NCBI GenBank assembly: GCA_965367815.1 | Contig: CBDUKN010000007.1 | Coordinates: 49,669-113,668 of the forward strand | Direction of reading: 5' to 3' | Length of the DNA stretch: 64,000 nt | Source of the DNA: an uncultured Thermoprotei archaeon | GTDB lineage: Archaea > Thermoproteota > Thermoprotei > Thermofilales > B15-G2 | Shown here: positions 8,293-25,436 of the stretch, piece by piece | Layout: every line of letters begins with the position of its first letter | Position numbering within the stretch: position 1 is the stretch's first letter | The notes under the pieces: model-generated | Databases searched by the model: none | Told to the model about the DNA's origin: nothing | The model's input: only the letters and a program-made list of their open reading frames with translations | Translations under genes and position numbers: made by a program

Positions 8293-11200
8293 ATGCTTAA
8301 AGGGAAATTATTAGCTTTCATACTAGGATTAACTCTAATATCAGCGGCTCTGCTAGCGCCTATTTCAGCTGTACCAATGTTTACCATAAGAGGATATGTT
8401 AAAACATGGAAAGGAGAGCCTCACACCAATACTATAGTCGTGGCATTCGATATAGCAAACTACGAAGTAAGAGGAGTGACTAAAACAAATGCTAGCGGAT
8501 ACTTTGAAATTACAGTACCGAGAGGCTATAAGTACGTAGTATTTATTCTGCCGCTCAACGCTAATGGAACAGCTCTAAGCCATGTACCAGAAATAGCCGA
8601 CTTACATTCATTTGAAGACTTAGTTGAAGTCACTATAAACTTCAAGGCATACCCAGCAGCATTTGTTAAAGTCTACGGAACAATACACTATGTTGGGGGA
8701 GATTGGCTCGAAATATTTTCACTTAAAGTACTAGATACAAGCGGAACAAGGATATCTGAAGTACTAGACGCAGGTAAAGCAGTATACTCAAGAGAGTTCG
8801 TGGGTAAAGGTGAAGTAAAAGTATCTCTTGTCGACGAATATGGCACAGCGTCAAGTTTCCTCGTATACTATGAAGTAGGAGTAAGGAGAGGAAAACTGCC
8901 TGCAGGTCTAGCCGATAAAAGCATAGCTATAGTTCCTGCAGAAAAACCAGTTATAGTTGAGTTCACGACAAGCATAATAGATAACCGTAAGCCACCGTTC
9001 CTTAGAGAACCAATACACAGAGTAAAATTCACTATAGGAGATCCACTCAACCCGCTAACACTAAAACCCGGAGAAAAAGTATTATTTGATATCGAGAAAG
9101 AGTCCTTGAAGAGAATTATCCAGGAAGTTAGAAGAGACGTCGATATAGCTGAATCACTCATAGAAGAAATGGAGCGAATGGGCTTCTACCTAGCTCCAGA
9201 GAGAGCAGACTTAGCTAAAGCTATAGCGCTAATAGAAGAAGCAAAGCTCGCCTATGAGCAGAACCAGCCAGTAGAGCAGATAATAGAGAAGCTTGAGAGA
9301 GCATACGTTATAGCGACACAAGTAGTAGCTGGACGAGTATTTTTCCTCAAAACAGTTGCTTTAGAGGGAGCGCCTCTTCTCTCATACTTCATAGCACTCT
9401 TCGCAGCAGTAATGGCCTACTACTTCTTCGAAGACCCCAAGAAAAAACTATACTCGTTCATAGCGTTCTTCGCAGCCTTCATGATAATATTCGCGCTATC
9501 TTACCCAGGATTCCCACTACTATGGAACAACAGAAGAGACCTCTTCCTAATCTCAGTATCTACAGCCTTCTTCGGAGTACTCTTCTTACTATTCTACTTA
9601 CCCATCAAAATAAAGGAAGCAGAGCTCCCAGGAACATTCAGAAGAGGAGCAATACTGGCAGTAACATTCTCACTTGCAAAGAGATTCTCTAGACTCAAGA
9701 AAACTAGAACAGGTATAGTAGTGTTCTCTCTAGCGGCTCTAATCTGGGCGTTTACAGTACTAGCATCTATTTCAACAGTATACGGCATATGGAGCGCTGA
9801 AGTACCTTCAGTAACCAAGGTAAACGCGCTAGTGGTAAAGCACTTAATAAATGAGACAACTATAAGTTCACTAGGCTATTTCTCTGACTACCAGTGGTTC
9901 GTCCAGCAGCTAGGCAACGATAGTGTATCAGTAGTAGTCTATAACGATCCGACAATTAAGCTAACTATACTCATTACTTCACCTGAAGGAAAATCTGTTG
10001 AAGTCAAAGCCTTCATGGGAGTCTCAGAGATAGAAGACAAAATTACAGGCATATCAAAAATAATAGTTGAAGGAGACTGGTCAAAAGTAGAGGAAAAGAA
10101 CTCTGTCTTCTTACCTTCAACTCTAGCTGAGAAGCTTGGAGTGAAAGTAGGAGATGTAGTTAAAATAGAAGTATATAGGCCGGGAGTAGAAATACCTGTA
10201 TCAGAAAAATACGTTGTCGCAGGAATATTTGATGAACTGTCTCTAGACAGAATAAAAGATATCGATGGAACACCGCTTAAACCACTAGTTCTAGTGAAAG
10301 GAGGCTTTGCTCCAGCAAACTCAACAGACATAATTATTGGCAACTGGGAGTACTTACTCAAAGAAGTTCTCCTTGAAGAGAAAGCACTATTCTCAACAGT
10401 ATTTAAGATATACAGAATAGCTGCAGTAGGGTCATCAGATGTACTGAAGAGCGTAGCCAGAAGATATATTGAAAGAAAAGGTGAAGGCTACTATGTTTAC
10501 GTAAATACTGAAGGCAAGTGCTACAAACTTTTCTTCGGACAGAAAGTAGAAAACATCTTAATGAGAAACGTTGACTTCATAATACCAATAGCAATAGTAA
10601 TCTCGGTAGTACTTGTATCAATGTACAGTATAGTAGAGGAAAGAAGAAGAGAAATATTTATCTTCAACGCTATAGGCTTCAATCCAATGCACATAGCCTT
10701 CCTATTCTTAGCGGAGTCAATAGTCTACGGACTCATATCAGGAGGCCTAGGATACATAGCTGGAATAGTCACCTTCAGAGTAATGGCAACATACTTCTCG
10801 TCACTAAACCTCCTAGTAAGAGAAAAGCTAGAGTGGTACTGGAGCATCATAGCAATATTTATCTCAATACTAGTAGCCATGATCGCTTCCTTCAAGCCAG
10901 CACTCAAAGCAGCCATGATGTACACTCCATCAAGAGTACGCAGAGTAAAGGCCACTGAGGCAGAAAAACTCAAACGCGAAGAAAAAATCCTAGTAACCTA
11001 CGTAGGCAAGAGGTATCTACTATCAGCTAAAATCAAGGAAGATGAGGCCGTAATATTCTTCTCGTTTATATACTCAAGGCTCAAGGACATGGAGTCAGGA
11101 TACACTGAGAGAGTAGAAGATCTGCAGGAATATGATGAAGAAGAGCTTCCCGACGGAACACTAGTAAAGAGATTCACCTTCAAGTGCGTGCTCTTAGTTG

Positions 11201-11403
11201 AAGGAGAGCGCGTAGTCATAGACAACGACTTGAGGTGCACAAAGAGTTCTAAAGAGAAGTTCTATAGAGTAGAGCTCTACGCGAAGCCTCATGGCGAAAA
11301 AGAAATCCCGCTGAGGTACCTTGATAGAGTAGCCTCAATGATCAACGATATACTCAAGTCATGGGAAGAAGAAAGAAAGAGGCTGCTGTCGTCGCGCCGA
11401 TAA
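8293..11403 (+). CDS. Large FtsX/MacB-like permease with N-terminal extracellular carboxypeptidase-regulatory-like beta domain
   Basis: Signal peptide; IRGYVK..TNASGYFEI; helical region; 3 TMs; MacB-type TM and extracellular domain (LAEKLGVKVGD); FtsX motif VEERRREIFIFNAIG..FLAES; TPSR tail. Confidence 0.78.
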   Translation: MLKGKLLAFILGLTLISAALLAPISAVPMFTIRGYVKTWKGEPHTNTIVVAFDIANYEVRGVTKTNASGYFEITVPRGYKYVVFILPLNANGTALSHVPEIADLHSFEDLVEVTINFKAYPAAFVKVYGTIHYVGGDWLEIFSLKVLDTSGTRISEVLDAGKAVYSREFVGKGEVKVSLVDEYGTASSFLVYYEVGVRRGKLPAGLADKSIAIVPAEKPVIVEFTTSIIDNRKPPFLREPIHRVKFTIGDPLNPLTLKPGEKVLFDIEKESLKRIIQEVRRDVDIAESLIEEMERMGFYLAPERADLAKAIALIEEAKLAYEQNQPVEQIIEKLERAYVIATQVVAGRVFFLKTVALEGAPLLSYFIALFAAVMAYYFFEDPKKKLYSFIAFFAAFMIIFALSYPGFPLLWNNRRDLFLISVSTAFFGVLFLLFYLPIKIKEAELPGTFRRGAILAVTFSLAKRFSRLKKTRTGIVVFSLAALIWAFTVLASISTVYGIWSAEVPSVTKVNALVVKHLINETTISSLGYFSDYQWFVQQLGNDSVSVVVYNDPTIKLTILITSPEGKSVEVKAFMGVSEIEDKITGISKIIVEGDWSKVEEKNSVFLPSTLAEKLGVKVGDVVKIEVYRPGVEIPVSEKYVVAGIFDELSLDRIKDIDGTPLKPLVLVKGGFAPANSTDIIIGNWEYLLKEVLLEEKALFSTVFKIYRIAAVGSSDVLKSVARRYIERKGEGYYVYVNTEGKCYKLFFGQKVENILMRNVDFIIPIAIVISVVLVSMYSIVEERRREIFIFNAIGFNPMHIAFLFLAESIVYGLISGGLGYIAGIVTFRVMATYFSSLNLLVREKLEWYWSIIAIFISILVAMIASFKPALKAAMMYTPSRVRRVKATEAEKLKREEKILVTYVGKRYLLSAKIKEDEAVIFFSFIYSRLKDMESGYTERVEDLQEYDEEELPDGTLVKRFTFKCVLLVEGERVVIDNDLRCTKSSKEKFYRVELYAKPHGEKEIPLRYLDRVASMINDILKSWEEERKRLLSSRR

Positions 11404-11404
11404 A

Positions 11405-12991
11405 ATGTTAAGTAAATATTTGGACAAAGAATTTTTGTTAACTTTATTTATTCTAATTATTTTGCTTATAGAAATAATAGCATTATTTATACTACCTAGC
11501 TTTAAAGTAAAAAAGTTAACTAGAGAAGAATACTTAGCGAAAGCTATTGAAGCCTACGAGTGGATGATGCAGTTCCAGATAACTCCTCCCGGCACTCCAT
11601 GGGGATGGCACCTGAACTGCAGAGACGCATGGGGAGGACTAGCAGGCTACTACACCAGACACTGCAAGTGGGCAGCAGTGTACGGTGCTGAAAGCTTCTA
11701 TCAGCTCTACATAGCCTCACACGACGTAGGCTGGTTCTTGGAACTCGGAGTAGACCTATATAATATAACCGGCGAAGAAAAGTACCTTAAAGCTACTGAA
11801 CTAGCAGCACAGTGGGCTCTCAGAATACAAGTAGGGTACAGTTCTTGGCTTAAAAAATTCGAAAAGCGCTACATTATGCCTCAAAAAAGTGAACGCAGTG
11901 TTAGCTGGAGATACGTTCCTGGTATAAAGTTTTCTAATGAGGTCATTGGAGCATACACTGAAGGAATGTTTGTTTTCAGCGGCGAACCACCATATCTTCA
12001 TGATTGGAGTGAAGGAGTATGCTACGCTGAGCCAGCACTTTGGGTTGCGCCCGAGCATGTCATACCTATAGCTAAAGGTTTACTAAAACTATACTTAGCA
12101 ACAAAGAATAAAACATACTTAATGTCAGCTATGAGGGCACTCGACTTTATAGCTAGAATGCAGTCTCCTGAAGGCGGTATATACACGTGTTATCCTCCGA
12201 ATGCCTACGGAATTAGAATGAGTGATACAGCTAGTGCAGCTGAACTTTTCCTTTATGCCTACATAGTGGTAGGAAACAAAACTTATCTCGAAAGAGGACT
12301 TAAGGCATGTGACTTCATGATAAGCAAGCAAGTAGCTTACGGCAGGTGGAGAGGAGTGCTGCCTCACTTGTCTACAGCTGGAGGTTCTTGGAGAAAACAC
12401 AGTTATTTTACAGGCGACGCTGCTGAGGCTATTATAGCCTGGTTAAAAGCATATGAGCTTACGGGTGAATATAAGTATCTGGAGGCGGCTGTAAGAGCAG
12501 CTTACTTTCTTCTTAGAATGCAGGAAACAGACGCCAGTAAGCCTTGGGGTACTAAGATATATTCATGGGATAAGCGTGCAGTAGGAGGATTCTACTGGGC
12601 CTATGTGCCAGGCTACGGCATCTTGGAATACCAATTTGTTTCATCAACTACGTCAGCCGCCATAGCTTTACTCAAATTATACACTGTAGTCGAAGAACCT
12701 ATTTTCTTAGAAAGCGTGAACTTGGCTTTAAAATGGCTTCTCGAGACAGAAATATATTCTCCTTCAAACACATACTTAGATCTTCCCGGCTTAACCGTAG
12801 TAAGCGATCCTCACGGACTTTATAAAAGCGGATATGTCCCACTATACGGTAAGTATTACGATGAAATCCCCGGAACAATGACAGGAGACCCCGAGCAAGG
12901 CTTCTGTGTAGCAATGGCTGCCTCCGGTCCCTGCTACCTCTTCCTTGAAATATACAGATTATACCATAAAGTATATAATCAGCAGAAGTAG
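11405..12991 (+). CDS. Membrane-anchored alpha/alpha-barrel repeat protein (prenyltransferase/squalene-cyclase-repeat or six-hairpin glycosidase-like)
   Basis: N-terminal TM; ~5 repeats of LY..TG..KYL..A..A..(W/F)L..Q...GG. Confidence 0.65.
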   Translation: MLSKYLDKEFLLTLFILIILLIEIIALFILPSFKVKKLTREEYLAKAIEAYEWMMQFQITPPGTPWGWHLNCRDAWGGLAGYYTRHCKWAAVYGAESFYQLYIASHDVGWFLELGVDLYNITGEEKYLKATELAAQWALRIQVGYSSWLKKFEKRYIMPQKSERSVSWRYVPGIKFSNEVIGAYTEGMFVFSGEPPYLHDWSEGVCYAEPALWVAPEHVIPIAKGLLKLYLATKNKTYLMSAMRALDFIARMQSPEGGIYTCYPPNAYGIRMSDTASAAELFLYAYIVVGNKTYLERGLKACDFMISKQVAYGRWRGVLPHLSTAGGSWRKHSYFTGDAAEAIIAWLKAYELTGEYKYLEAAVRAAYFLLRMQETDASKPWGTKIYSWDKRAVGGFYWAYVPGYGILEYQFVSSTTSAAIALLKLYTVVEEPIFLESVNLALKWLLETEIYSPSNTYLDLPGLTVVSDPHGLYKSGYVPLYGKYYDEIPGTMTGDPEQGFCVAMAASGPCYLFLEIYRLYHKVYNQQK

Positions 12992-12998
12992 GAGGTAG

Positions 12999-14852
12999 AT
13001 GTATATGTTTGATAAAGCTTTTCAGTTGGCAATAATGATTTTCTCGAGCTTAATGATGGCACAGCTTTTCTCTAGAACTTTATTCGAAAAAGAGTTTTAC
13101 AGAAAAGTAAACTTCCTGTTAATATTTCTTGTATCAGTCTTACTCATGTATAAAATAGAGCCAATGCCCTTCGAACTAGCTCTTTCGCTTATAGTGCCGC
13201 CCTTTAGACTAGAGTACTTAATGACTTTTATTCTAGCGTTTATACCCTTCCTTATTCCTTTAGCTATACTATTTTCACGCGGCGAAACGTGGCTACTCGC
13301 AGAGATAGTCGTACGTTTTCTTAGAAGAAGGCGCCTTAGAACACTATTAAATGTAATGACAGTAGCCTTAGTACTCTCGGTACTAACCTCGGTTGCCGCT
13401 ATATCGCCGCTAAAATCATTTTATGTAATGAAAATAGCACAGACACCAGCAGAGCTAAAAGAGCTGTGCAAGCACCACCACGTATACATATTGCTCTATA
13501 AGGAATATACCTGGATTGCATCTACTGAGGCAAGTATACAGAAGGAAGAAATGAAGTCGCTGACACTGGAAGTGAAAACAGGCTTCTTGTCACTTTTCAG
13601 CAAACCTGAAGCAGTAATAGACTTCATGTACACTGAAGGCCTAGCTGACGGGAAAAAAGTTCAAATTCTCATAACCGATACTAACACTTTACAAGAGATC
13701 TTTCCATCAAATTTAATATTAAAAAAATTAAATGAAAAAACACTAGCTTACGCCAATTCATATACTTTAATAAATACTACAATCAAAATAAACAGTATTG
13801 ATCGCGAATTTAAGCCCAGCGGATTATTTAATTTAACAGAAGTGAAAATAACAAGAGACATAGCTATTCTAACAAAAACTCCTTCAATCTTAATCGACAT
13901 TAAAGCACTTAAACCAGAAGAGATTTTAAACCTCGTAGATGCAGGAGCCTTAAAGTACGTAGTTGTCGCAGTAAATCATGCTGTTAGCAAATCGAATCTA
14001 GAAAAATTCATTAAGTTATTTTCAAGTGAAGCGAGCTACCAAGAAAAAGCTCTTGTATACACACCACTAGTATTGCAAATAGATGAAAATAACGTAATGA
14101 TGTATTTCACTATAGGCACATACTACATGTTTTCAGGCGAAATAGGGTACTTGTTCTTTGCAGCACTATCAATTTTCCTACTCCTATTTTCAACAATTCT
14201 AGGAACTGTATATGAGAGAAGCAAAGAGTACTCCATCCTAGCCTGTCTAGGGGCAACTCCTAGTAAAATATACCTTGTCATGTTCCTTGAAGGAGCCTAC
14301 CTAGCCTCCCTTGGAGGAGTACTCTCAATGTTTATTGCATATCCTATAATAAGGGAAGGGATATCAGCTTACTACAAATCAAACTTGCCTTCAATATTCT
14401 TTCTGTCACTAGGCACAAGCTACCTAGCAACAATAGCCTCATATTTAGCTCTAAGAATTAAAGGAATACGTGAAGTTACTCCAAGCCGCGTAATAAAATA
14501 CACTGCGGAAAGAAAGAAAACAGGGGGAGAATTCGAAGTACCCATAAAAATTCACGACTGGAGTAGTTTCAAGCATTTCCTCAAAGAAATCGAAGGAAAA
14601 AACGTTGAACCAGGAATAAAAGTACTAAAGGTATCCGAGGAAAACGGAAATCTAAAAGCACTAGTCGCATGTGGTATAGATAGAGAAGCCCTATACATGT
14701 TTACATTAATTTATTCAGGAGAATCTGTAAAAATCAGGGTTGCAGGCGAAAGAACATGGACAGCTGAGCACTCCAGATTATATGACCTCGCTGTAAGAAG
14801 CTTTAGAAAACTAGCCTTAAGATACTCACTCAAAGAAAAATTAAACAAGTAA
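12999..14852 (+). CDS. FtsX-like permease paralog (short)
   Basis: RRRRLRTLLN TM1, extracellular domain, VYERSKEYSILACLGATP..MFLEG FtsX motif, VTPSR tail. Confidence 0.75.
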   Translation: MYMFDKAFQLAIMIFSSLMMAQLFSRTLFEKEFYRKVNFLLIFLVSVLLMYKIEPMPFELALSLIVPPFRLEYLMTFILAFIPFLIPLAILFSRGETWLLAEIVVRFLRRRRLRTLLNVMTVALVLSVLTSVAAISPLKSFYVMKIAQTPAELKELCKHHHVYILLYKEYTWIASTEASIQKEEMKSLTLEVKTGFLSLFSKPEAVIDFMYTEGLADGKKVQILITDTNTLQEIFPSNLILKKLNEKTLAYANSYTLINTTIKINSIDREFKPSGLFNLTEVKITRDIAILTKTPSILIDIKALKPEEILNLVDAGALKYVVVAVNHAVSKSNLEKFIKLFSSEASYQEKALVYTPLVLQIDENNVMMYFTIGTYYMFSGEIGYLFFAALSIFLLLFSTILGTVYERSKEYSILACLGATPSKIYLVMFLEGAYLASLGGVLSMFIAYPIIREGISAYYKSNLPSIFFLSLGTSYLATIASYLALRIKGIREVTPSRVIKYTAERKKTGGEFEVPIKIHDWSSFKHFLKEIEGKNVEPGIKVLKVSEENGNLKALVACGIDREALYMFTLIYSGESVKIRVAGERTWTAEHSRLYDLAVRSFRKLALRYSLKEKLNK

Positions 14853-15237
14853 ATACTGCACACATTACCGTCCAAGAAAGCAATAATTTTAGTTCAATTA
14901 ACTTTAAATTTATCTTTCCTGTAGCCAATCAATCTTTAACACACTACTATAAAATTAGTACTAATTTCGGCAGCAATATTCCTATTTTTTGCTCATAACT
15001 ACCTTTACGTTCTTATAAAAAGACTTTATTAAAGCAGTCTTAAACTAAATGCGTTAATAACTAAACATATGGCTCCTAGCAACAATTTTCATAAAACCCT
15101 TACGACACGTTATGACCCTGAGAAGAAATTTGACAAAGGTAAAAAATACTGACGGTTCATATATCTTTTTCGGAAAGCCTTAAATAATTTTGTTTTTCTA
15201 GTTAAAACAGCATTTGATACATATTGAGGGATAGAAT

Positions 15238-17265
15238 ATGGTGGAGGAGACGAAAGTAAAAGAAGTAGAGGCTCTAAAAGTACTCAAATCACCGCGCCTC
15301 ATAATCCTCTGGATTATAATTCTACTAGTATTCATCCCCTATCAAGCATTCAGACTCTATGGATGTTACGGCAACGGAACATCGTTCATGAGCCTAGTGC
15401 TCTTACTAACAGCTATAATCGGCTTATTTAGCAAGAAGTTTAAGCTATCACCTCAAGAAGCAACAATAGCCTTTGCCATAGCGACAGTAGCAGCTGATAT
15501 CTCAATCTATACAGCTTTCTACGATAATCCACTATCAGGCATACCCTTCATTAACCTATATGGCGGACCAAACCTCGATAAAGTAAAGCAGTGGATACCT
15601 TCATGGATGTTTATACCTACAGAAGTACTAGAGCCTGCCAGAAATGGTGGAGCAATGCTCCCACTAGGGCCGCTCTTACCAGTACTAGCTTTCTTAACAA
15701 TATTCTTAATAGCACTCAAGTTGCTACAGCTAGCCACAGCAGGCATTATTGCAAGACAGTTTGTAGAAATAGAGCGCCTTCCATTCCCAGCCTTCATGCC
15801 AAGCCTCTACGTAATCAAATACTATTCCGAAGAAGTAGGAAAGAAGCCTAGACTACTATCATGGAAAGGCAACACTCCGTTCTGGCTGGGCTTCATCATA
15901 GGATTTCTAATAGATGCTATAGCTATTATGGAAGTATTTAGCGAAGCTGTCACAGGAAAAACCTACATACAGCTTCCTGCAAGCACAGGATTCATAGGAC
16001 AGTTCGTAGTTGATCTAAGGTTCCTAGAACCGTACTTGCCGGGCGCAATGCTGTACTGGTATCCAGGACTAGACTTCGGTTTCTTCCCAGTCGCTCTCTT
16101 CTTGCCATTAGATGTAATGGCTACGGCAATTCTATGGTTCTTCCTATGGTATATCTTCTATCCAGCAACAGTTAATATCCTTGGAATATATCCGACAAAA
16201 GTTACCGCAGGACAGCTAGGAGGAGGTGCTGTAGGAGCATGGCCATTTACATGGGTTGGTCAGATAGCAGTCCCATTTGCATTAGGCCTCTATCCACTAA
16301 TATTTAGCTGGAGGTACTTCAGAGACTTCTTCAGAAAAGCTTTTAAGAGAACAGACCTCAATCCATCGCTCCCAGAAACTCTGCCAGTCTACACGGGTAT
16401 TGTAGCTTTCATAATATTGCTAGCTCTGCTAGCGACTATAGGCATGCCAATAGTGCTAGCGTTTCTCTGGCTAATAGTTCTGACAATCTGTTGGACAGGT
16501 ATGGCTAGAGTAGCAGGCGAATACTTCACTCAGCCACTGGCCTGGGCGTGGGGAGACCTCTACAGAGGATTCATGGGCTTCTCTCAGACAGTCATGGGCT
16601 GGCCTAACCCCTATCCATCTAAAGAAGCATGGGGCACTATGATGGGCATGAGGCTGACTTACAATACTGTAGAAAGAGAGGTAGACAGCACATGGGGCTT
16701 CTTAGGCTGGTACAGGGTAGCGAGAGACACTAACACAAGCTGGAAAGCAGTCTATATAGCCCAGCTCGTAGCGGTAATTATTGGGGTAATTCTTGCCTGG
16801 CCAGCTATCTACGGTCTAGCCTACTACAGAGGTCTTGAGGTAGGCTGGAACGGATACTTTACAGCTACATCCATCAGATACGCTGCTAGAAGATTTGTGG
16901 ACTACGGTCTAGCAGGAACAGTAAATGCTATTAGTCCATGGAACATGCTAAAGATCGGATGGCTCTTTGGAGGCATCGTAATGGTCTTTGCTATAATGTG
17001 GCTTAGACTCAGATTCCCATGGTTCTTCCTCAACCCAGTAGGTATGCTATGGCAACACCCATGGTGGCTTGGTGCAACTATGCTAGCTTTCGTTATAAAG
17101 TACATCGTTATCAAGGTGGGCGGTGCACAGGCTAATGAGAAATACTTAATACCCTTCGCTACCGGCTGGGCTTTCGGATCAGCTATAGGTGGACTAGTGA
17201 CATACTGGCCCGAAAACATTTATAGAGCGTTCTTCAACAGACTCTTCCCGTACTTCTGGTGGTAA
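15238..17265 (+). CDS. DUF6785/OPT-superfamily-like multi-pass transporter
   Basis: LSPQE, EIERLPFP, RFPWFFLNPVG motifs; ~16 hydrophobic segments. Confidence 0.7.
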   Translation: MVEETKVKEVEALKVLKSPRLIILWIIILLVFIPYQAFRLYGCYGNGTSFMSLVLLLTAIIGLFSKKFKLSPQEATIAFAIATVAADISIYTAFYDNPLSGIPFINLYGGPNLDKVKQWIPSWMFIPTEVLEPARNGGAMLPLGPLLPVLAFLTIFLIALKLLQLATAGIIARQFVEIERLPFPAFMPSLYVIKYYSEEVGKKPRLLSWKGNTPFWLGFIIGFLIDAIAIMEVFSEAVTGKTYIQLPASTGFIGQFVVDLRFLEPYLPGAMLYWYPGLDFGFFPVALFLPLDVMATAILWFFLWYIFYPATVNILGIYPTKVTAGQLGGGAVGAWPFTWVGQIAVPFALGLYPLIFSWRYFRDFFRKAFKRTDLNPSLPETLPVYTGIVAFIILLALLATIGMPIVLAFLWLIVLTICWTGMARVAGEYFTQPLAWAWGDLYRGFMGFSQTVMGWPNPYPSKEAWGTMMGMRLTYNTVEREVDSTWGFLGWYRVARDTNTSWKAVYIAQLVAVIIGVILAWPAIYGLAYYRGLEVGWNGYFTATSIRYAARRFVDYGLAGTVNAISPWNMLKIGWLFGGIVMVFAIMWLRLRFPWFFLNPVGMLWQHPWWLGATMLAFVIKYIVIKVGGAQANEKYLIPFATGWAFGSAIGGLVTYWPENIYRAFFNRLFPYFWW

Positions 17266-17284
17266 ACTAGAAATAGTTTAACAA

Positions 17285-17301
17285 TTTTTTATTTTATTTT
17301 T
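17285..17301 (+). terminator. T-rich archaeal terminator-like tract
   Basis: TTTTTTATTTTATTTTT about 20 nt after stop codon 17265. Confidence 0.45.
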
Positions 17302-17532
17302 AATGTGTTTTAAATAGTTAGAGTCTTCTTATGCTGTATATGCCTTAATTGAGGCGTAGGAAGTATCCTTTACTACAAGTTCTCGTTATGGTTATGTCTA
17401 GTACTAGGTAAACCGGGAGTCATAATATGGAAGCTTAGCTGACACAATTTTAACAATTATTGGGTTATCTCTATTGAAAAATCTTTTATAAGAACATAAA
17501 TTAGGTTTATATAGCCAAAGGTTTACTGTTAA

Positions 17533-20500
17533 TTGATGGTGATAAATTCAAAGAAAGCTTTTACACTAATATTCATTATAGTTCTGAGTGTAGTGATTGC
17601 CACGGTACCTGAAGCAACTGTTTCTCGCAGAGAAACAATTAACTGGGAGGATCTTGAAGCATTCTTAAAGAACTTCAATTACTCCAAGGTTCTCAAACAT
17701 ATCGAATATTTTGGCTCGCTTGATAGTCGCTTGACAGGGTATCCCGGTGCCTGGGAAGCTCTACGCTATATATATTCAGAGCTGGAGCTCTATGGGTACG
17801 ACTTAGTCTATTTCCAGAATTTCACCACAGTTGTTCCAGTAGTGCGAGAAGCTTACATTGAAGTTAAGAGCGGCGAGACTGTCAGCAAGTTTAAAGTATA
17901 CCCTGTTTGGCCTAATCTTGTTCAAACATCTCCTACTGGACCCGAAGGTATCTCGGGGAAGTTGCTCTACTTAGGTAAAGGGGACTTAGAGAGCATCAAG
18001 GGAATAGACATAAAAGATGCTATTGTTCTCCTGGATTATAACAGCGGAGACAATTGGGTGAAGTTAGCCGAGCTAGGAGCAAGAGCTGTAATTTTCATAG
18101 AGCCTTTATCAACCAACAGATTCGAGTCTTTCAATAAATTTGTCTACGTAAATCTTTATTTCCCTAGAGTCTATGTTGACAGAAAGACTGGTATCGAACT
18201 AAAAAAACTGTGTGAAAAAGATGCCGCTACAGCTAGGCTTATTCTAGATTACTCGATGGAAGAGGTTGTTTCAGCGAATGTAGTTGCTTTCCTGAAAGGA
18301 AAAGGCAGCACTAATGATTCTCTTGTTTTAGCAGCATATATTGACGATTGGTCTCCTGTACCCGAGCTCGCTAGCCACTATGATAGCGCCTGCGGTGCAG
18401 CAGTCTTACTCGAAGTAGCACGCTTACTAGCTAAAAGTAAGCCAGAACTCAACGTCATTGTAGTATTCTTTACGGGTCACTGGGAAGGTTTATGCGGACC
18501 TAGAGCTTTCGTAGAAGAGGTACTCGAAGTTTTTGCTGACCGCACATTGCAGAACCATCCAATATGGAACCAAAGTGTTCCTAAAACATTTCTTTCATTG
18601 GATTTATCTACTGGTAGCAGTAGTGTTGCCCTACTCCACTCAGGCGGATTTTATCACGTAGCAGGTCCCAGTATTTTTGAAGAATGCGTAGACATGTTCA
18701 GGGGAATGGATTTCCTTCTAAGAGAGTATGGTAGGAGTAACAGGCTAGCTGACTTAGTCAAAAAATACTCAGGCAGGGCTCCTGAAATATATTACCAGCT
18801 TATAGATCAATCTGGAGGCGCTTACGTGGAGGCTGGTGAGCTAGAATACTTTACTCCTGTGCCCTACAAGTACATCGCTGATGTAGAGCCATGGCTTCAA
18901 GCGGGACTACCAGGCTATACGCTCTTTACTGCTTTCGACTACAGGTTTACATGGTTCACTCCTCTTAAAGAACGAGTACACTTTAACCCGGATAACCTTA
19001 AGCCTCAAGCATACTATGTTGCAGCACTATCTTACATTTACTCCAACGTCGTAACAAGTGATTACCCACCGAGGAGAGTATGGGGCCCGACTCGCTACTA
19101 TTTCCCAGGACCCTTCGCCCCATTTGTTCCGGGCTTCACTAAGATGAGAGGTCAAGTCGTAGTATATTTGCCTATTTCGCCTAGACAGTATGAGCCGCTA
19201 ATGAATGAAACTATAGTAGCTATAGTGGATTCAGAGGATCAATACAATATTTTCAACTATATTTTCTTAAAAACAAAGCCTAATGGAACTTTTGTTGTCC
19301 ATGGTCTAGCCATAGATAGAGGAGGGGGAGCAAGAACTTATATGGCTAGGCTCTACGTAATTGACTATAAGAACAAGGGAAGAATTCTCTATACAAATGA
19401 TTACGGCAAATATGGTGCTGAAGCAATATACACTACGAGAACGTTCAGTGTGAGAGAAGGAGTCTATGGATGGCCGCAGCCTTTGCGTTTCGTCGTATTC
19501 AAGTGTGCCAGCATAACTATGTTTAGTGTAACTTTTCCTCAAGGAATGCTTGACTTATACAACTACATGAGTATATACAAGACTCTTCAAGCCCGAGATG
19601 TTTCAGTAATAGTTAGAGAATTTACATCTCACTCAGAGGTATATCACTATGGTTATGAAGTAGACCCTATGTCTAGGATACTAGTTGTCTATGTCAAGCC
19701 TGAAGAGAGAATAGAAATAGAAGTACACGTTAGGTCTCAGGAAGGGCCAATCTACTTAACAATTCTACTTTTAAATGCTTCTGAAAAATACCCGGAGGGT
19801 GCTGGTTACTATCTTAATGAGCCGGGAGAATCTCTGGTTTTATTAAAGTCTACTTTGCACTACGTCGAGAACTTCTACTGGCTAAGTAGATATAGAATAG
19901 ACTTGGCTGCGAGGTTCGGTGTCTTTGACGCGGAGTCTCAGAGAAGTTTGAGGATGCTTGAAGAGTGGCGTAATTTAACTAAAAAGTATTTAGAGGAAAA
20001 AGATTATAGTAAAGCCTACTATGCTTCGCTAATCGCTTGGGCTTGGGCACAAAAGCTCTATTACTCGTCGAGAGGGCTTATTCAAGGCTCATCTACAACT
20101 ACTGTAGTCTACTTCGTTATGTTGATCCCATTTGCTTTCGTGCTAGAGAGACTTTTATTTGAGTTTTACGAGGGCAGAAAAAGACTCTTAACAATAGCGT
20201 GTATCTTTGCAATATTTATTGTCTTGATGTGGCTTAACCATCCAGGTTTCCATTTAGTAGCGAGTATGCCTACACTGTTGCTAGGCTTCGTTATACTAAC
20301 TATTTCGGTAGTAATAGGTTTCCTACTCTACACAGATTTCCAAGGCGTAATGTGGAGAGTAAGGAAAAAGACTCTTGGAGTACACTTCGTAGAAGTGAGT
20401 AGATGGGATGTCATGGTTTCGTCGCTTTACTATGGTGTAGTAAATATGAAGAGGCACAAGGTTACTTCGCTTCTTACTCTGACAGCAATAGTCATCATAA

Positions 20501-22134
20501 CAATGTCGCTAATATCACTTACATCAATTACGACGCATACTGTTCTAAAAACATTGAGTATTACTGCTGAGCCTAGTTATACAGGGCTTTTAGCTAGGTA
20601 TGTCTCTTATGATACCTTGCCGGAATCGTTTGTGGAGTGCCTAAAGGTGTTAAGTGAAGAAGAAGTAGCTAGACGTGCCTGGCTTTATGGGCCTATTGAA
20701 GGATCGACTCTATGGGGAGAAATACCTGTAGAGTATGAGGGTAAGAAAGAAACTGTAAGAGCTATAGTAGGCTTAGATGAAGTAGACGGTAAGGTCTTAG
20801 GCATAGAAGCCGCTACTATTTATAGAAGATGGAGTGAGCTTTTCCGCGAAATATCGCCCGACGTAATATCTTGTATAATAAACCGTAAGCTCGCAGAATT
20901 CCTTGGCATAAAGTCTGTGCCTGCGAAAGTAAAAATATGGGGCATTGACTTTATAGTAGTCGATATATTTGATCCAGCTGCACTCGGTGGAGTAAGAGAT
21001 ATTGATAATGAGCCTATAGCTCCTTTCAATATATGGTCTACTGAAGCAGGGGCATCTGGCATCGTTGTTACAGAGAGGCTTCAGTGGGATACTATTATAA
21101 TTATTCCCTACAGTGTCTTAGAAAAGTTCCCTGGCTCTATAAGAGCGAGCACAGCTGTTGTAGGCGAAGACTACACGAAACTAGATAAGTTTGCCAGAAT
21201 ACTCGCGGAAATGACCTATAACATGTATCTCTTTGTCTCTGACGGAAAGAAAGTGAAAGGATATGTTTCGTTAGTAGGTCTCGCTGCTAGAGGATGGTCA
21301 TTCTTACTACCGGCTATAGTTATAGCTTCGCTTATAATGTTCAATATGATGATTTCTCTAGTACAGCAAAGAACAAATGAAGTTAAAACTCTTTCAGCTC
21401 TAGGTCTTGCTCCACTACATGTTGTTGGCCTCTTCTTCTCTGAAGCTATAGCCTATGCGCTCATAGGAGGAGTAATAGGATATACTACCGGTATATTTGT
21501 ACTCAAGGCTTTGACACCACTAATGGGCCCCGGCTTCTATCCCAATTACACTTCAGGTGCAGTAGTGTTAGCGATAGCACTTTCATTTGTCACTGTAATA
21601 GTACCCTCAATTATTCCTGCCTTCAGAATGGGTGCTCTCGTAACACCATCGCTTGAAAGAAAATGGAAGATTACTACTAAACCTAGAGGAGATATATGGG
21701 AAATTCCTACGCCGTTTAGAGCAACTAAGGTAGAAGCTCCCGGCGTGCTTCTTTATGTTAAAGAGTTTCTCGATGCTCATAGAACAGAAAGAGCCCATAG
21801 ATGGTTTGCTTCACTTGAAGAAGCTAAAATAACCTCATTTGAAATGGAGGGTAAAAAAGGCTATGCGCTTAAAACTAGAGTAATGCTCTATCCATGGGAG
21901 GCTGGACTAAAACAGGAAGTTGAAATAGCTGCGTTACCAGAAGACGGTATTTCTCGATTCACTGTAGCGCTGCGCCTCGAGTCAGGGCCAAGAGAAGTCT
22001 GGATACGTTCCAACAAGGCGTTCCTAGATATCCTTAGGAAGCAGTTCTTATTATGGAGAAGTATTGTTCCTTCTGAGAGAAGAGAATACGTTAAGAAGGC
22101 TTTAGATCTTGTGGGCTTGAAGGAGGGTGAGTAG
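17533..22134 (+). CDS. M28-peptidase-like (PA-domain) / FtsX-like permease fusion, 1533 aa
   Basis: Signal peptide; SRLTGYPG, PA domain (GKLLYLGKG..GARAVIF), NVVA..G, LAAYID, TGHWEG; later TMs, MacB-like domain, FtsX motif QQRTNEVKTLSALGLAP..FFSE; VTPS tail. Confidence 0.8.
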   Translation: MMVINSKKAFTLIFIIVLSVVIATVPEATVSRRETINWEDLEAFLKNFNYSKVLKHIEYFGSLDSRLTGYPGAWEALRYIYSELELYGYDLVYFQNFTTVVPVVREAYIEVKSGETVSKFKVYPVWPNLVQTSPTGPEGISGKLLYLGKGDLESIKGIDIKDAIVLLDYNSGDNWVKLAELGARAVIFIEPLSTNRFESFNKFVYVNLYFPRVYVDRKTGIELKKLCEKDAATARLILDYSMEEVVSANVVAFLKGKGSTNDSLVLAAYIDDWSPVPELASHYDSACGAAVLLEVARLLAKSKPELNVIVVFFTGHWEGLCGPRAFVEEVLEVFADRTLQNHPIWNQSVPKTFLSLDLSTGSSSVALLHSGGFYHVAGPSIFEECVDMFRGMDFLLREYGRSNRLADLVKKYSGRAPEIYYQLIDQSGGAYVEAGELEYFTPVPYKYIADVEPWLQAGLPGYTLFTAFDYRFTWFTPLKERVHFNPDNLKPQAYYVAALSYIYSNVVTSDYPPRRVWGPTRYYFPGPFAPFVPGFTKMRGQVVVYLPISPRQYEPLMNETIVAIVDSEDQYNIFNYIFLKTKPNGTFVVHGLAIDRGGGARTYMARLYVIDYKNKGRILYTNDYGKYGAEAIYTTRTFSVREGVYGWPQPLRFVVFKCASITMFSVTFPQGMLDLYNYMSIYKTLQARDVSVIVREFTSHSEVYHYGYEVDPMSRILVVYVKPEERIEIEVHVRSQEGPIYLTILLLNASEKYPEGAGYYLNEPGESLVLLKSTLHYVENFYWLSRYRIDLAARFGVFDAESQRSLRMLEEWRNLTKKYLEEKDYSKAYYASLIAWAWAQKLYYSSRGLIQGSSTTTVVYFVMLIPFAFVLERLLFEFYEGRKRLLTIACIFAIFIVLMWLNHPGFHLVASMPTLLLGFVILTISVVIGFLLYTDFQGVMWRVRKKTLGVHFVEVSRWDVMVSSLYYGVVNMKRHKVTSLLTLTAIVIITMSLISLTSITTHTVLKTLSITAEPSYTGLLARYVSYDTLPESFVECLKVLSEEEVARRAWLYGPIEGSTLWGEIPVEYEGKKETVRAIVGLDEVDGKVLGIEAATIYRRWSELFREISPDVISCIINRKLAEFLGIKSVPAKVKIWGIDFIVVDIFDPAALGGVRDIDNEPIAPFNIWSTEAGASGIVVTERLQWDTIIIIPYSVLEKFPGSIRASTAVVGEDYTKLDKFARILAEMTYNMYLFVSDGKKVKGYVSLVGLAARGWSFLLPAIVIASLIMFNMMISLVQQRTNEVKTLSALGLAPLHVVGLFFSEAIAYALIGGVIGYTTGIFVLKALTPLMGPGFYPNYTSGAVVLAIALSFVTVIVPSIIPAFRMGALVTPSLERKWKITTKPRGDIWEIPTPFRATKVEAPGVLLYVKEFLDAHRTERAHRWFASLEEAKITSFEMEGKKGYALKTRVMLYPWEAGLKQEVEIAALPEDGISRFTVALRLESGPREVWIRSNKAFLDILRKQFLLWRSIVPSERREYVKKALDLVGLKEGE

Positions 22135-22136
22135 TT

Positions 22137-24071
22137 ATGGGGAGGTTTAGGTTATTCAATGAAGAAGAAGGATTAACTTGGAGGTCGTTTTTAGCAATAG
22201 TGTTTTCAGCGGTAGTAATACTTCCTATACAAATTTACATGACTCTAGCTACTCCAATATCAGTAGCTTGGCCCGCTGTAATTCTATTGCTCTTCACTGA
22301 GCTTGCCTATTTCTTCCACTCGCCTCTATCCAGACAGGAGGGCTTCATAATATATTTCGTCTCATCAGTAGCTATAGGAGGATCGGTACTCGTAGAGGGA
22401 ATGATACCTTTCCTTAACTTCCCCTACCGCGTATACATGGTTCAAAGCCCCTACTTCAAGGCACTAGGCTTCGATAAAGAGGTGCCCTGGTGGTTTGTTC
22501 CGCCTATATCTTCAGAAGCTATACTGAAGAGAACTCTGCTTCACCCAGACTGGCTATTCTACATAGGACTGCTTATCTTAGGCTTCATCATATATCTCGG
22601 CACAATACTGCCTATGACCTTCATATTAGCTCAGCTCTACATAGAAATAGAGAAACTGCCATTCCCTATAGGAAGAGTACAAGCCGAGACAATAATCAGC
22701 TTGACTGAAAGAGACCCTGAGAGATTCGATAAATTCATACTGTCAGCAGTAATAGGAGTAATATATTCACTCATCCTCTACGGCTTCCCAATAATAACGC
22801 TAACATTCTTCGGCAAAGCATTTTCTGTTACAGGGTCTATGATATGGTCGTTCCTCGACTTGACTCAGGCACTACAAGTAATCATACCGGGAGCAATCTT
22901 CGGCGTATCGCTAGACCTCCTCAACGTAGCTTCAGCATGGGTCATTCCCTCTTACCTAGTGATTACAGCAACTATAGCATCTATACTAGCCTATGTTGTC
23001 GGAAACGCTATTGCGCTAAAACTTCCGCTAGATATATTCAAGTGGTGGCAACAAGACTGGTTCCCTGGAGCAGGACTAGTCTGGCTCTACCAGCGCTCGT
23101 ACTTTGACTTATGGCTTAGTGCTTACATAGGTGTATCGATAGCTGCCGGTATAATGCCGTTTATCCTCGAGTACAAGAACTATGCCAGAGCTTTCTCTAA
23201 TCTAAAATCTCTCCCCGAGAGCGTGAAGAAAGCAGGGTACATATCGCTGACTCCTCTTCTCACAGTATACTTCCTTTCCGTAGCCGCCTCAATAGCGCTA
23301 TTCAAGTATCTTGTGCCTAGATTCCCCATAATACTGCTTCTGCCTTTCGTTGCCTGGGGCTTCATATGGCCTTTCATCAGCGCCTGGTCTATAGGTATGA
23401 CAGGATTTGCTCCAGCCCAGCCCCCGATGCTCAGAGAGGCAACTATTCTCTTCAGCGGATACAAGGATCTAGATGTATGGTTCGCTGGATGGGTTGCTCA
23501 GCCAGGAAATGCTCCAGGAGTAATAGTGAATGCATTCCAAGTAGGCTACTGGTGTGGAGTAACTCCGAAAACATACCTCAAGGCGGCTTTCATGGCAATG
23601 CCTCTGCTCTTCATATTCTCGCTAATATACGTCGACATGTTCTGGCGCATGGCTCCAATGCCCTCAGCCTTCTACCCATGGATCGAGGTAACGTGGCCTA
23701 TTTCTGTGCTAAACTGGGTTATCTGGCCTACATTCGTGAGAAAAGGCTTCCTGCCTACAATAAGCTCAGAGTTTATAATAGGGTTCTTCTTAGTATCAGC
23801 GATTCTCGCAGTGGTCTTAAAGATACTTAAGCTACCTCTAGCAGTGCTAATAGGTGTTCTCTGGGGAATTACTTCTATGCCTCATCCGCTAGTAGGAGCA
23901 ACAATAGGAGTAATTGTGGGCAAGATACTCGAAAAGAAGCTTGGTAAGGAAAAGTGGGACCGCGATAAAGTAGTCATAGTAGCTGGCTTAACTCTAGGAA
24001 ACGCTGTAGCAATAGCTTTCGCCGCCTCGTTGCTACTAATATCGAGGTCGCTATGGGCTCTACCATACTAA
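22137..24071 (+). CDS. OPT oligopeptide-transporter-superfamily protein
   Basis: GLTWRS, LSRQE, EIEKLPFP, PMPSAFYP, VAGLTLG motifs; ~16 TMs; 2 nt after upstream stop. Confidence 0.72.
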   Translation: MGRFRLFNEEEGLTWRSFLAIVFSAVVILPIQIYMTLATPISVAWPAVILLLFTELAYFFHSPLSRQEGFIIYFVSSVAIGGSVLVEGMIPFLNFPYRVYMVQSPYFKALGFDKEVPWWFVPPISSEAILKRTLLHPDWLFYIGLLILGFIIYLGTILPMTFILAQLYIEIEKLPFPIGRVQAETIISLTERDPERFDKFILSAVIGVIYSLILYGFPIITLTFFGKAFSVTGSMIWSFLDLTQALQVIIPGAIFGVSLDLLNVASAWVIPSYLVITATIASILAYVVGNAIALKLPLDIFKWWQQDWFPGAGLVWLYQRSYFDLWLSAYIGVSIAAGIMPFILEYKNYARAFSNLKSLPESVKKAGYISLTPLLTVYFLSVAASIALFKYLVPRFPIILLLPFVAWGFIWPFISAWSIGMTGFAPAQPPMLREATILFSGYKDLDVWFAGWVAQPGNAPGVIVNAFQVGYWCGVTPKTYLKAAFMAMPLLFIFSLIYVDMFWRMAPMPSAFYPWIEVTWPISVLNWVIWPTFVRKGFLPTISSEFIIGFFLVSAILAVVLKILKLPLAVLIGVLWGITSMPHPLVGATIGVIVGKILEKKLGKEKWDRDKVVIVAGLTLGNAVAIAFAASLLLISRSLWALPY

Positions 24072-24213: not shown

Positions 24214-25371
24214 ATGCCTGCTGTAGCAGATTTACCTTTACATACAGGCACTGTTCCGCCCTGGCTAGCTTCCCGTATGATTAAGCTGACTGAGATAGTT
24301 GTAAGACTTCTCGTAGAAGAATATGGTACTGTAGGTGTTCTTGAGAGATTATCTGACCCTATTTGGTTTCAGGCACTAAATAATCTAATCGGAATGGACT
24401 GGGATAGCTCTGGATCGACGACAGTTACCTGTGGAATACTTAAACAGGTTCTTATTAAAGAAGACTTCGGTATTAAAGCAGCTGGAGGTAAGGGAGATAA
24501 AGCTAGGGCAACTCCTTCCGAACTCAAAGAAATCTGTAGCAAATATAGCTTAAATCCAGATAAATATATTCAAGTATCACGTATTGTAGCAAAAGTAGAT
24601 AACGTTGCTCTACAGTGTGGATATACTCTATACCACCATATGTTTTTCGTAGACAAGGAAGGCAACTGGACTATAGTCCAGCAGGGAATGAATGTTTCTA
24701 CGAAAATGGCTCGAAGATACCACTGGTTCTCGGGACATTTAAAAGACTTTGTTGTAGAGCCTCATAAGGCAATAAGCGGAACTAAACACAGCTACGCGTT
24801 CAATACTATAGCTAGAAGAATAGATGAGTTTAGAAAAACAGTAGTAGATTTAGCTAAAGAAAATGCCTCAAAACTCGAGAGAGAACTCAAATCAGTTCTT
24901 GCACTCGCTAAAGGAAATACTCTACTAGCCTACTACACGCCCTATAATCCTGAAGAAGCGAGAAAGAAAGTAAGGAAGTATATAAGCTTGGGGCCAGTAG
25001 CGCTAAATAGGAAGGCTTTAATTGAGGCAAGAGAACTCGCAGTGTCTGATTTCAAGGAACTGCTTTTAGTTAAAGGACTCGGTCCAAGCACTCTCAGAGC
25101 ACTAGCTCTTGTAGCAGAGCTTGTATACGAAACACCTCCCTCGTGGAAAGACCCCGTAACACATCCAATAGACCCCTTCAAGTACGCTTACGCTGTAGGA
25201 GGAAAAGACGGAGTACCCTTCCCAGTAGACAAGAAGACTTACGATGAGCTTCTCTCTTTTCTAGAAGCACTGCTAGCTAAAGCTAGAGAACACAGAAAAA
25301 TATTCCTCAAAAACATGGCTAAGATCACTAAAAACTGGTCTCCTCCACCAGAAGACAAAATTCCAACATAA
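24214..25371 (+). CDS. DUF763 family protein
   Basis: ADLPLH.G.VPPWL, GMDWDSSGSTT, AKVDN.ALQ.GY.LYHH, QQGMN...ARRYHW, GGKDGVPFPV; HhH-like KGLGP. Confidence 0.88.
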   Translation: MPAVADLPLHTGTVPPWLASRMIKLTEIVVRLLVEEYGTVGVLERLSDPIWFQALNNLIGMDWDSSGSTTVTCGILKQVLIKEDFGIKAAGGKGDKARATPSELKEICSKYSLNPDKYIQVSRIVAKVDNVALQCGYTLYHHMFFVDKEGNWTIVQQGMNVSTKMARRYHWFSGHLKDFVVEPHKAISGTKHSYAFNTIARRIDEFRKTVVDLAKENASKLERELKSVLALAKGNTLLAYYTPYNPEEARKKVRKYISLGPVALNRKALIEARELAVSDFKELLLVKGLGPSTLRALALVAELVYETPPSWKDPVTHPIDPFKYAYAVGGKDGVPFPVDKKTYDELLSFLEALLAKAREHRKIFLKNMAKITKNWSPPPEDKIPT

Positions 25372-25395
25372 TATTCGACTCAACTAGAATATCCT

Positions 25396-25433
25396 TATAT
25401 ACTTCATTCGAGTATATTCGAGTGAAGTATATA
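25396..25433. repeat. 38-bp near-perfect palindrome directly upstream of AAA/DUF4143 gene
   Basis: TATATACTTCATTCGAG-TATA-TTCGAGTGAAGTATATA: 17-bp stem with two G:T wobbles. Confidence 0.8.
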
Positions 25434-25436
25434 TAG

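Follow-up and report, generated by a model that had tools for sequence, protein, structure and literature searches.

How FtsX-type membrane proteins operate where no ATPase gene lies beside them is the question raised by a block of six genes, lettered A to F, at positions 8293-24071 of a 64,000-nt stretch of DNA. The whole stretch, referred to here as the window, belongs to the genome of an uncultured Thermoprotei archaeon (coded G000; 2.45 Mb, 99.4% complete). A, C and E are FtsX/MacB-type proteins, whereas D and F are multipass carriers of the OPT superfamily. The original prediction, made from the letters of the sequence without database searches, read the six genes as one ATPase-less heteromeric machine in which the OPT-like subunits might supply translocation or energy. 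The analysis indicates that the block is one copy of a modular Thermoproteota envelope system (D-E-F) together with a lineage-specific add-on (A-B-C). The giant FtsX-type proteins are read here as mechanotransmission modules that are run by one shared ATPase and are functionally coupled to a proton-driven OPT pair, a proposal whose chances are put slightly above even. The description "ATPase-less" is true of the loci but probably not of the system; most likely, the loci contain no ATPase because the giant FtsX paralogues share a single unlinked one.

A conserved cassette and an orphan ATPase

The six genes are present as predicted, as open reading frames (ORFs) that all lie on the plus strand, and there are zero Pfam ABC_tran matches within 8293-24071. 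The genome as a whole contains 18 FtsX matches. Four of these are in frames of 223-424 aa, each adjoining an ATP-binding cassette (ABC) ATPase, so the organism uses FtsX-type transporters in the normal way. The remaining 14 are in frames of 617-1533 aa, none of which has an adjacent ABC ATPase. E-F pairs occur six times in the genome, with a D-type gene alongside in four of them and a 4-nt overlap in three, and no ABC ATPase is found in any cassette of G000. An arrangement that recurs six times in one genome and again in many other genomes is more than a product of chance. A 2119-aa open frame in another genome (G004:C2:102702-104591, L015) was considered as an E-F fusion and rejected, since a TAG separates the two genes.

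Two surveys extended the comparison to other genomes. The first took the best F match from each of 20 different genomes of the order and found an E-type gene adjoining F at all 20 loci, although order and orientation vary and F is often divergent from E. A D-type gene completes the trio at 18 of these loci, and the other two loci end at contig ends. An ABC nucleotide-binding domain (NBD) is encoded in only one of the 20 stretches, five genes off. The second survey was seeded with the C-terminal tail of E (described below) and used one genome per GTDB species, which gave 80 loci spanning 1.2 Mb; counts were made on the 60 loci that have a full-length E flanked on both sides. F adjoins E at 58 of the 60 and lies within two genes of it at the other two, and D lies within three genes of E at 51, being missing from some cassettes (L078, L093 and L097). 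NBD ORFs of varied sizes occur somewhere in 8 of the 60 loci, never adjacent to E. Some genomes are common to both surveys, which are therefore not independent. The expectation that FtsX-like and OPT-like genes are co-conserved, and that homologous loci do without an NBD partner, is thus borne out. Among 41 related genomes, F is found in 24 and the tail in 25, with both in 23; G037 has F without the tail, and G016 and G029 have the tail without F. The family PF20581 is present in 21 of the 41 genomes, all of them inside the set bearing F or the tail, and in none of 14 control genomes. Metagenome-assembled genomes that carry cassettes are labeled Thermoprotei, Thermofilales/Thermofilaceae, Bathyarchaeia/Bathyarchaeota or Brockarchaeota, and others are filed under Thaumarchaeota or Nitrososphaerota.

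A candidate for the missing ATPase was found by ranking the NBDs of the genome against the four FtsX-linked NBDs. This orphan NBD (G000:C4:10332-11063, 243 aa) has no adjoining permease gene and is LolD/MacB/DevA/YbbA/FtsE-like (LolD, 4.1e-70; MacB NBD, 9.5e-68), with intact Walker A, Q-loop, LSGGQ, Walker B (ILADE) and H-loop motifs. Of the 25 tail-positive genomes of the order, 22 have an orthologue with 80-97% identity, whereas the 16 tail-negative genomes have none and show no match above 70% identity. The orphan NBD resides at a conserved locus that consists of ABCE1 (the name taken for a double-ABC protein of ~600 aa), an ORF of ~95 aa (s101), the NBD and a THUMP protein. Among genomes in which this ABCE1-THUMP locus can be assessed, all 23 that are tail-positive carry the NBD there and none of the 14 that are tail-negative does; in those 14 the locus is assembled and contains neither an NBD nor a tblastn remnant of one. 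Of the three tail-positive exceptions to the orthologue count, G027 carries an NBD of 60% identity at the locus, while the contig of G019 ends inside ABCE1 and ABCE1 was not found in G010, both of which were left out of the 23.

The orphan NBD is also unusually conserved. It is 80-89% identical across the order, compared with 55-63% for ABCE1 in the same genomes, and a canonical FtsX-linked NBD is 55-61% identical (72% in two genomes) with a distribution that does not follow the tail. Such strong constraint is what is expected of a subunit that fits many partners. Across an even set of 151 genomes of the phylum (tail cut-off E<=1e-20; close NBD, E<=1e-85), a close NBD is present in all 40 tail-positive genomes. 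The absence of a co-evolving MacB/LolD-type ATPase, on which the original prediction depended, therefore looks to be contradicted by an orphan NBD that appears to track the tail-bearing FtsX genes, and no evidence was obtained for the accompanying idea that the OPT-like subunits supply the energy. An NBD related to the orphan ATPase is encoded at G000:C9:63012-64375 (L139:7013-8376), where it adjoins a minimal FtsX of 212 aa that has no large extracytoplasmic domain. This FtsX-NBD pair is highly conserved in the phylum; the C9 NBD is 74-75% identical to the orphan ATPase and 79-83% identical across four distant genomes of the phylum.

Architecture of the six proteins and their closest relatives

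Table 1. Genes of the block and mapped parts of E, in window coordinates.
Feature	Position	Strand	Description
A	8293..11403	+	1036 aa, FtsX/MacB-type protein
B	11405..12991	+	528 aa, anchored, (alpha/alpha)-barrel glycoside-hydrolase-like
C	12999..14852	+	617 aa, FtsX/MacB-type, without large N-terminal ectodomain
D	15238..17265	+	675 aa, OPT-superfamily multipass, DUF6785 + DUF6784
E	17533..22134	+	1533 aa, PA/M28-like ectodomain + MacB/FtsX permease module + tail
M28-like domain of E (residues 249-464)	18277..18924	+	Non-canonical metal site
MacB/FtsX (type VII ABC) permease module of E	20455..21645	+	TM1, extracytoplasmic Porter/Sabre-like domain, TM2-4
Cytoplasmic C-terminal tail of E	21646..22131	+	LVTPSLERKWK..PRGD.WEIPLPF, then beta-alpha-beta5-alpha2 domain
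F	22137..24071	+	644 aa, OPT/YSL-fold multipass

The features of the block are listed in Table 1. The intergenic gaps from A-B to E-F are 1, 7, 385, 267 and 2 nt. The frame of E opens with TTG at 17533 and its next codon (17536) is ATG; the database form of the protein has 1532 aa, so the ATG is the likelier start.

Pfam places FtsX (PF02687) in all three FtsX/MacB-type proteins above the cut-off of 25.5 bits, with 43.7 bits in A (residues 765-874), 28.0 bits in C (residues 385-454) and 42.9 bits in E, and each protein contains a single FtsX stretch. By hydropathy, A and E have a common plan in which a signal anchor is followed by an ectodomain (~330 aa in A and ~820 aa in E), three transmembrane segments (TMs), a Lys/Arg-rich cytoplasmic loop, a complete MacB-type unit (TM1, an extracytoplasmic domain of ~250-270 aa, and TM2-4) and a cytoplasmic tail of ~160 aa. 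C has N-terminal TMs, MacB TM1, an extracytoplasmic domain of ~250 aa, TM2-4 and a tail of ~124 aa. The ectodomain of A has a weak CarboxypepD_reg-like match, and residues 531-647 of A together with the FtsX part match NCBIfam lolCE; the closest paralogue of A is G000:C3:130739-133777. A profile built from the 594 C-terminal residues of E together with 24 relatives matches MacB (7.7e-18), YtrF, LolF and LolC/E in the PDB, at profile positions 32-429 only. The AlphaFold model of the permease module and tail of E (predicted local distance difference test score, pLDDT, 82.7) matches MacB, YtrEF, LolCDE, FtsEX, HrtBA, YbbAP and BceAB by Foldseek/VIA-align, and the MacB periplasmic domains 3ftj, 5f9q and 5udf match it at Z 10.6-11.8. 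Relatives of E carry PF02225 and PF12704, and the module, including the cytoplasmic loop and the segment after TM4, is kept across relatives that are about 30% identical. Hydropathy, model and fold matches all place a large extracytoplasmic domain of the Porter/Sabre kind between TM1 and TM2 of a four-TM core. A, C and E are each a complete MacB/FtsX-type (type VII ABC) permease module.

Two sequence motifs had been proposed to unite the three proteins. The ERxxE..LG..P motif of the FtsX loop is found in C (ERSKE..LG..P) and, with IG for LG, in A (ERRRE..IG..P), but not in E, which has QRTNE..LG..P with the first Glu replaced by Gln. The TPS motif is present in all three (YTPSRVRR, VTPSRVIK and VTPSLERK), in each case followed by a tail of about 124-161 aa. 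It is not a new element, however: a small canonical FtsX of the same genome ends in ...YKGAKLEPAVAFRFEV (compare ...KLEPAVAFR), which makes the TPS motif this family's version of the ordinary C-terminal motif that follows TM4 in FtsX proteins.

The tail itself (about residues 1372-1533 of E) has a strongly conserved start. It contains no P-loop, and no Pfam family, PDB sequence match or usable Atlas match was found for it. Its fold matches are middling and of a generic helix-grip/TBP-like kind (Z 8-8.7 over ~100-110 residues at ~3 A). The tail profile matches A at 4.1e-29 and C in two pieces (2.3e-10 and 1.1e-7), and 1558 cluster representatives (50% identity) match it, invariably at the C-terminus.

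The ectodomain of E contains an M28 domain (42.9 bits against a cut-off of 21.3), and the roles presumed for its residues are those of the M28 family (HxD, a bridging Asp and a Glu-Glu pair). Alignment with the PA-M28 aminopeptidase 2ek8 shows that in E the first His ligand is replaced by Tyr and the Glu-Glu pair by His-Trp. Within the family alignment Glu-Glu is kept in none of 27 members and His-Trp occurs in 15, whereas the first His is kept in 19 and Tyr occurs in 6. At the positions compared (the first His and the Glu-Glu pair), the canonical metal and catalytic residues are thus not kept in E. This alteration suggests that the ectodomain of E may bind instead of cleaving, or may use an altered chemistry. 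E resembles PA-M28 peptidases in combining PA and M28 and differs from them in having His-Trp for Glu-Glu and, in this copy, Tyr for the first His. The transferrin receptor and nicastrin are non-catalytic relatives of the same peptidases. In contrast to E, a stand-alone 557-aa PA + M28 peptidase encoded at window 32122-33795 (+) keeps HHD, DN and AEE.

The prediction that the two ~650-aa multipass proteins are OPT-like and homologous to each other holds, although Pfam sees little of it. D matches DUF6785 and DUF6784 only, F matches no Pfam family even at E<=10, and the Pfam OPT model (PF03169) is unmatched by either protein. PF03169 is, however, carried by 13 of 22 database relatives of F, one of which is named as an OPT/YSL family transporter. 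The model of F (pLDDT 87.9; predicted TM-score, pTM, 0.88) has a full-length OPT/YSL fold and matches barley YS1 (7wsr_A/7wst_A) with E values of 5e-11 and 1.2e-10 and TM-scores of 0.66-0.71; Foldseek found nothing else in the PDB below E 1e-3. BLASTP aligns D and F over the EIE(R/K)LPFP stretch alone, and detection of their homology needed profiles: the two families align by hhalign over 603 columns with a probability of 99.9 (E 1.4e-34). The motifs noted earlier, LSxQE and EIE(R/K)LPFP, are indeed common to both (LSPQE/LSRQE and EIERLPFP/EIEKLPFP), and the second Glu of the EIE motif (Glu179 in D) is invariant in both carrier families. The profile alignment and this invariant Glu show that D and F are two diverged OPT-superfamily paralogues. 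Barley YS1 is described as a homodimeric proton symporter in PMC9691689, and by analogy with it D and F probably form a heterodimer. Compared with known OPT/YSL carriers, F has the same full-length fold and relatives that carry PF03169 but itself falls below Pfam detection, D is filed as DUF6785/DUF6784, and the two are always distinct paralogues beside an FtsX giant.

Only D-E-F recurs as a unit, which speaks against the idea that all six genes form one conserved machine. B is found in 4 of the 41 related genomes, near the closest orthologues of E-F, and is a lineage-specific accessory; A is a paralogue and C pairs with B. B has one N-terminal TM anchor by hydropathy and weak Pfam matches to C5-epim_C, Pec_lyase, GH76 and GH127, and it matches a GH76 alpha-1,6-mannanase in the PDB (7.7e-4) and GH88/GH127-like clusters in the Atlas (at 0.90). 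Other giants have other neighbors. The 1200-aa FtsX paralogue at G000:C3:114207-121890 (L011:208-7891) has no OPT carriers alongside; its neighbors are a penicillin amidase (683 aa, 1.7e-136) and a 637-aa protein with weak C25 similarity, which indicates that FtsX giants pair with different extracytoplasmic enzymes. The complete, single-contig genome G086 has one cassette (L120, G086:C1:996000-1015900), in which the order is small FtsX, NBD, NBD, a 189-aa ORF, GH57 (841 aa), F, D and E. The GH57 at this cassette and a second GH57 nearby hint at a glycan link in that lineage.

Several further genes of the window were noted. The nearest ABC_tran genes encode two adjoining ABC_membrane+ABC_tran half-transporters at window 3-2917 (+), 5 kb upstream; they are of the heterodimeric exporter type and are unrelated to FtsX permeases. 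Directly downstream of F, at window 24214-26873 (+), are genes for a DUF763 protein (1.9e-126) and an AAA_14/DUF4143 ATPase. A second AAA_14/DUF4143 gene adjoins an unrelated ABC importer on contig C10. At window 42709-49236 (+) is an ORF of 2175 aa whose sole Pfam match, at residues 757-825, is to the central domain of UDP-glucose/GDP-mannose dehydrogenases.

The components of the cassette come from known superfamilies, but no published description of their arrangement was found; searches of the literature yielded no account of the D-E-F trio, of DUF6785 or of FtsX paralogues served by a hub ATPase. The closest known systems are MacB, LolCDE, FtsEX and YtrEF. E has their four TMs and the large extracytoplasmic domain between TM1 and TM2, and A, C and E have their Pfam FtsX domain and ERxxE..G..P cytoplasmic loop (QRxxE in E). 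The D-E-F cassettes differ in that the NBD is neither fused nor adjacent and in that two OPT-fold genes are constantly linked to E. Moreover, A and E add N-terminal ectodomains of 330-820 aa and three extra TMs, all three proteins add a C-terminal cytoplasmic domain of ~125-160 aa, and up to about 14 paralogues per genome would share one ATPase. FtsX-type permeases with many paralogues that have no adjacent ATPase genes are known in the ADOP group, and TIGR03434 is taken here to be this family (Acidobacterial duplicated orphan permease). Membership of A, C and E in ADOP was considered and rejected, as they score 32.2, 20.6 and 23.5 bits against a TIGR03434 cut-off of 622.3 and have one FtsX domain each where ADOP proteins have two. 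The phylum, the ectodomains and the OPT partners also differ.

Proposed energy coupling and alternative explanations

When the NBDs of a type VII ABC system bind ATP, the stalk helices zip together and the extracytoplasmic domains move, so that work is done outside the transporter's membrane, as described in PMC8277102. In the mechanism proposed for the archaeal system, the giant FtsX paralogues (14 in G000) would share the unlinked LolD/MacB-type ATPase of contig C4, which is predicted to dock on all three such proteins of the block (A, C and E). As the NBD binds and hydrolyzes ATP, it would drive mechanotransmission through the four-helix stalk, and the motion of the stalk would shift or gate the PA/M28-like ectodomain of E, much as envelope hydrolases are driven by FtsEX. 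Captured or released oligomers, which may be peptides, or glycopeptides where B-type enzymes are present, would then be imported by the OPT pair at the expense of the proton gradient. Each module would be specialized by its own ectodomain. The (E/Q)RxxE..LG..P loop and the conserved segment after TM4, both kept in E, support an NBD-served module.

Several observations weigh against a shared ATPase. The ~160-aa tail that follows TM4 lies exactly at the expected docking position of an NBD, which it could replace; it could also serve as an adaptor or a regulator. In the phylum sample a close NBD is also found in 9 of 111 tail-negative genomes. Five of these nine carriers were checked, and their longest FtsX ORFs reach 945-1124 aa and contain no more than a fragment of the tail. 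At this level identity cannot separate the orphan NBD from a paralogue that lies beside an FtsX of 190-225 aa. When placed on the ABCE1 tree, the co-occurrence reduces to only 3 independent changes, all of which are concordant, but the sign test is not significant (p 0.25). The orphan NBD type is found at none of the 80 loci of the second survey. Linkage of an NBD to the cassette in G086 and G124 was discarded as evidence, as 2 of 40 genomes compares with about 2.6 estimated by chance and adds nothing. Finally, the non-canonical M28 site, as judged from the alignment, weakens a role for E in processing peptides.

One alternative to a shared ATPase is the machine first envisaged, in which the tails of the FtsX-like proteins couple to the OPT-like subunits and the proton gradient powers both translocation and the movement of the ectodomains. 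The lack of an NBD in any cassette, the tight D-E-F linkage with its 4-nt E-F overlaps, the invariant EIE Glu of both carrier families and a conserved tail that is unique to the family and sits at the NBD docking position are all consistent with such a machine. It is nevertheless unlikely: the occurrence of an exceptionally conserved orphan NBD of MacB type appears to follow that of the family, E keeps the standard NBD-facing motifs, the literature searches found no precedent, and G016 and G029 have tail-FtsX genes and the NBD with no F match. It is also rather unlikely that there is no energy coupling of any kind and that the FtsX module is a passive anchor or dimerization scaffold for a surface domain, with D and F acting as independent, co-regulated OPT carriers. 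The altered M28 site fits a static receptor, and the variable order and orientation of the trio, in which F is often divergent from E, and the cassettes that lack D fit independent carriers. A single TM would suffice for a simple anchor, however, whereas distant relatives conserve the permease module in full, with its cytoplasmic loop and the segment after TM4, and the pattern of the orphan NBD would be left unexplained.

A role in remodeling the cell's own envelope, with FtsEX-like modules controlling hydrolases that act on S-layer or glycan and OPT-like proteins exporting or recycling precursors, is very unlikely. FtsEX regulates cell-wall hydrolases and FtsEX-EnvC entries are among the fold matches, and the giant FtsX genes are flanked by genes for a penicillin amidase, a C25-like peptidase, the GH-like B and, in G086, GH57. 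However, six to eight diverged cassettes are present per genome, and cultured-type relatives with complete genomes (genus g5) have none, which suggests that a dispensable, substrate-diversified function fits better than core envelope biogenesis. The OPT/YSL members considered here (PMC9691689) are also importers. The proposal of ATP-driven modules that share one ATPase could be carried further, to a single physical hybrid of E, D and F in which a MacB-type mechanotransmitter is docked to a heterodimeric proton-driven OPT carrier. A dozen paralogues would draw on the same ATPase hub, whatever is captured or processed outside the cell would pass straight to secondary import, and the helix-grip-like tail, as adaptor or sensor, would determine which paralogue is given the ATPase. 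Such a hybrid is doubtful. A complex prediction of F with residues 1240-1533 of E gave a score of 0.00, made without controls, and is evidence neither for nor against it.

Were the hybrid E-D-F machine real, it would be a chimera of primary and secondary transporter that is not known from any organism. Should a single ATPase serve many permease paralogues, the arrangement would be an unusual hub-and-spoke form of ABC system, and it would explain why the hub ATPase is more conserved than ABCE1. The constant pairing of E with two OPT-fold carriers gives DUF6785/DUF6784 a testable context. Current pipelines label E-type proteins as "M28 family peptidase" or "FtsX-like permease", and the altered metal site argues that metabolic reconstructions should not score such proteins as active peptidases. 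Which carbon sources these uncultured archaea use is a matter of debate, and the tail-bearing family is large and occupies tens of kilobases in small genomes.

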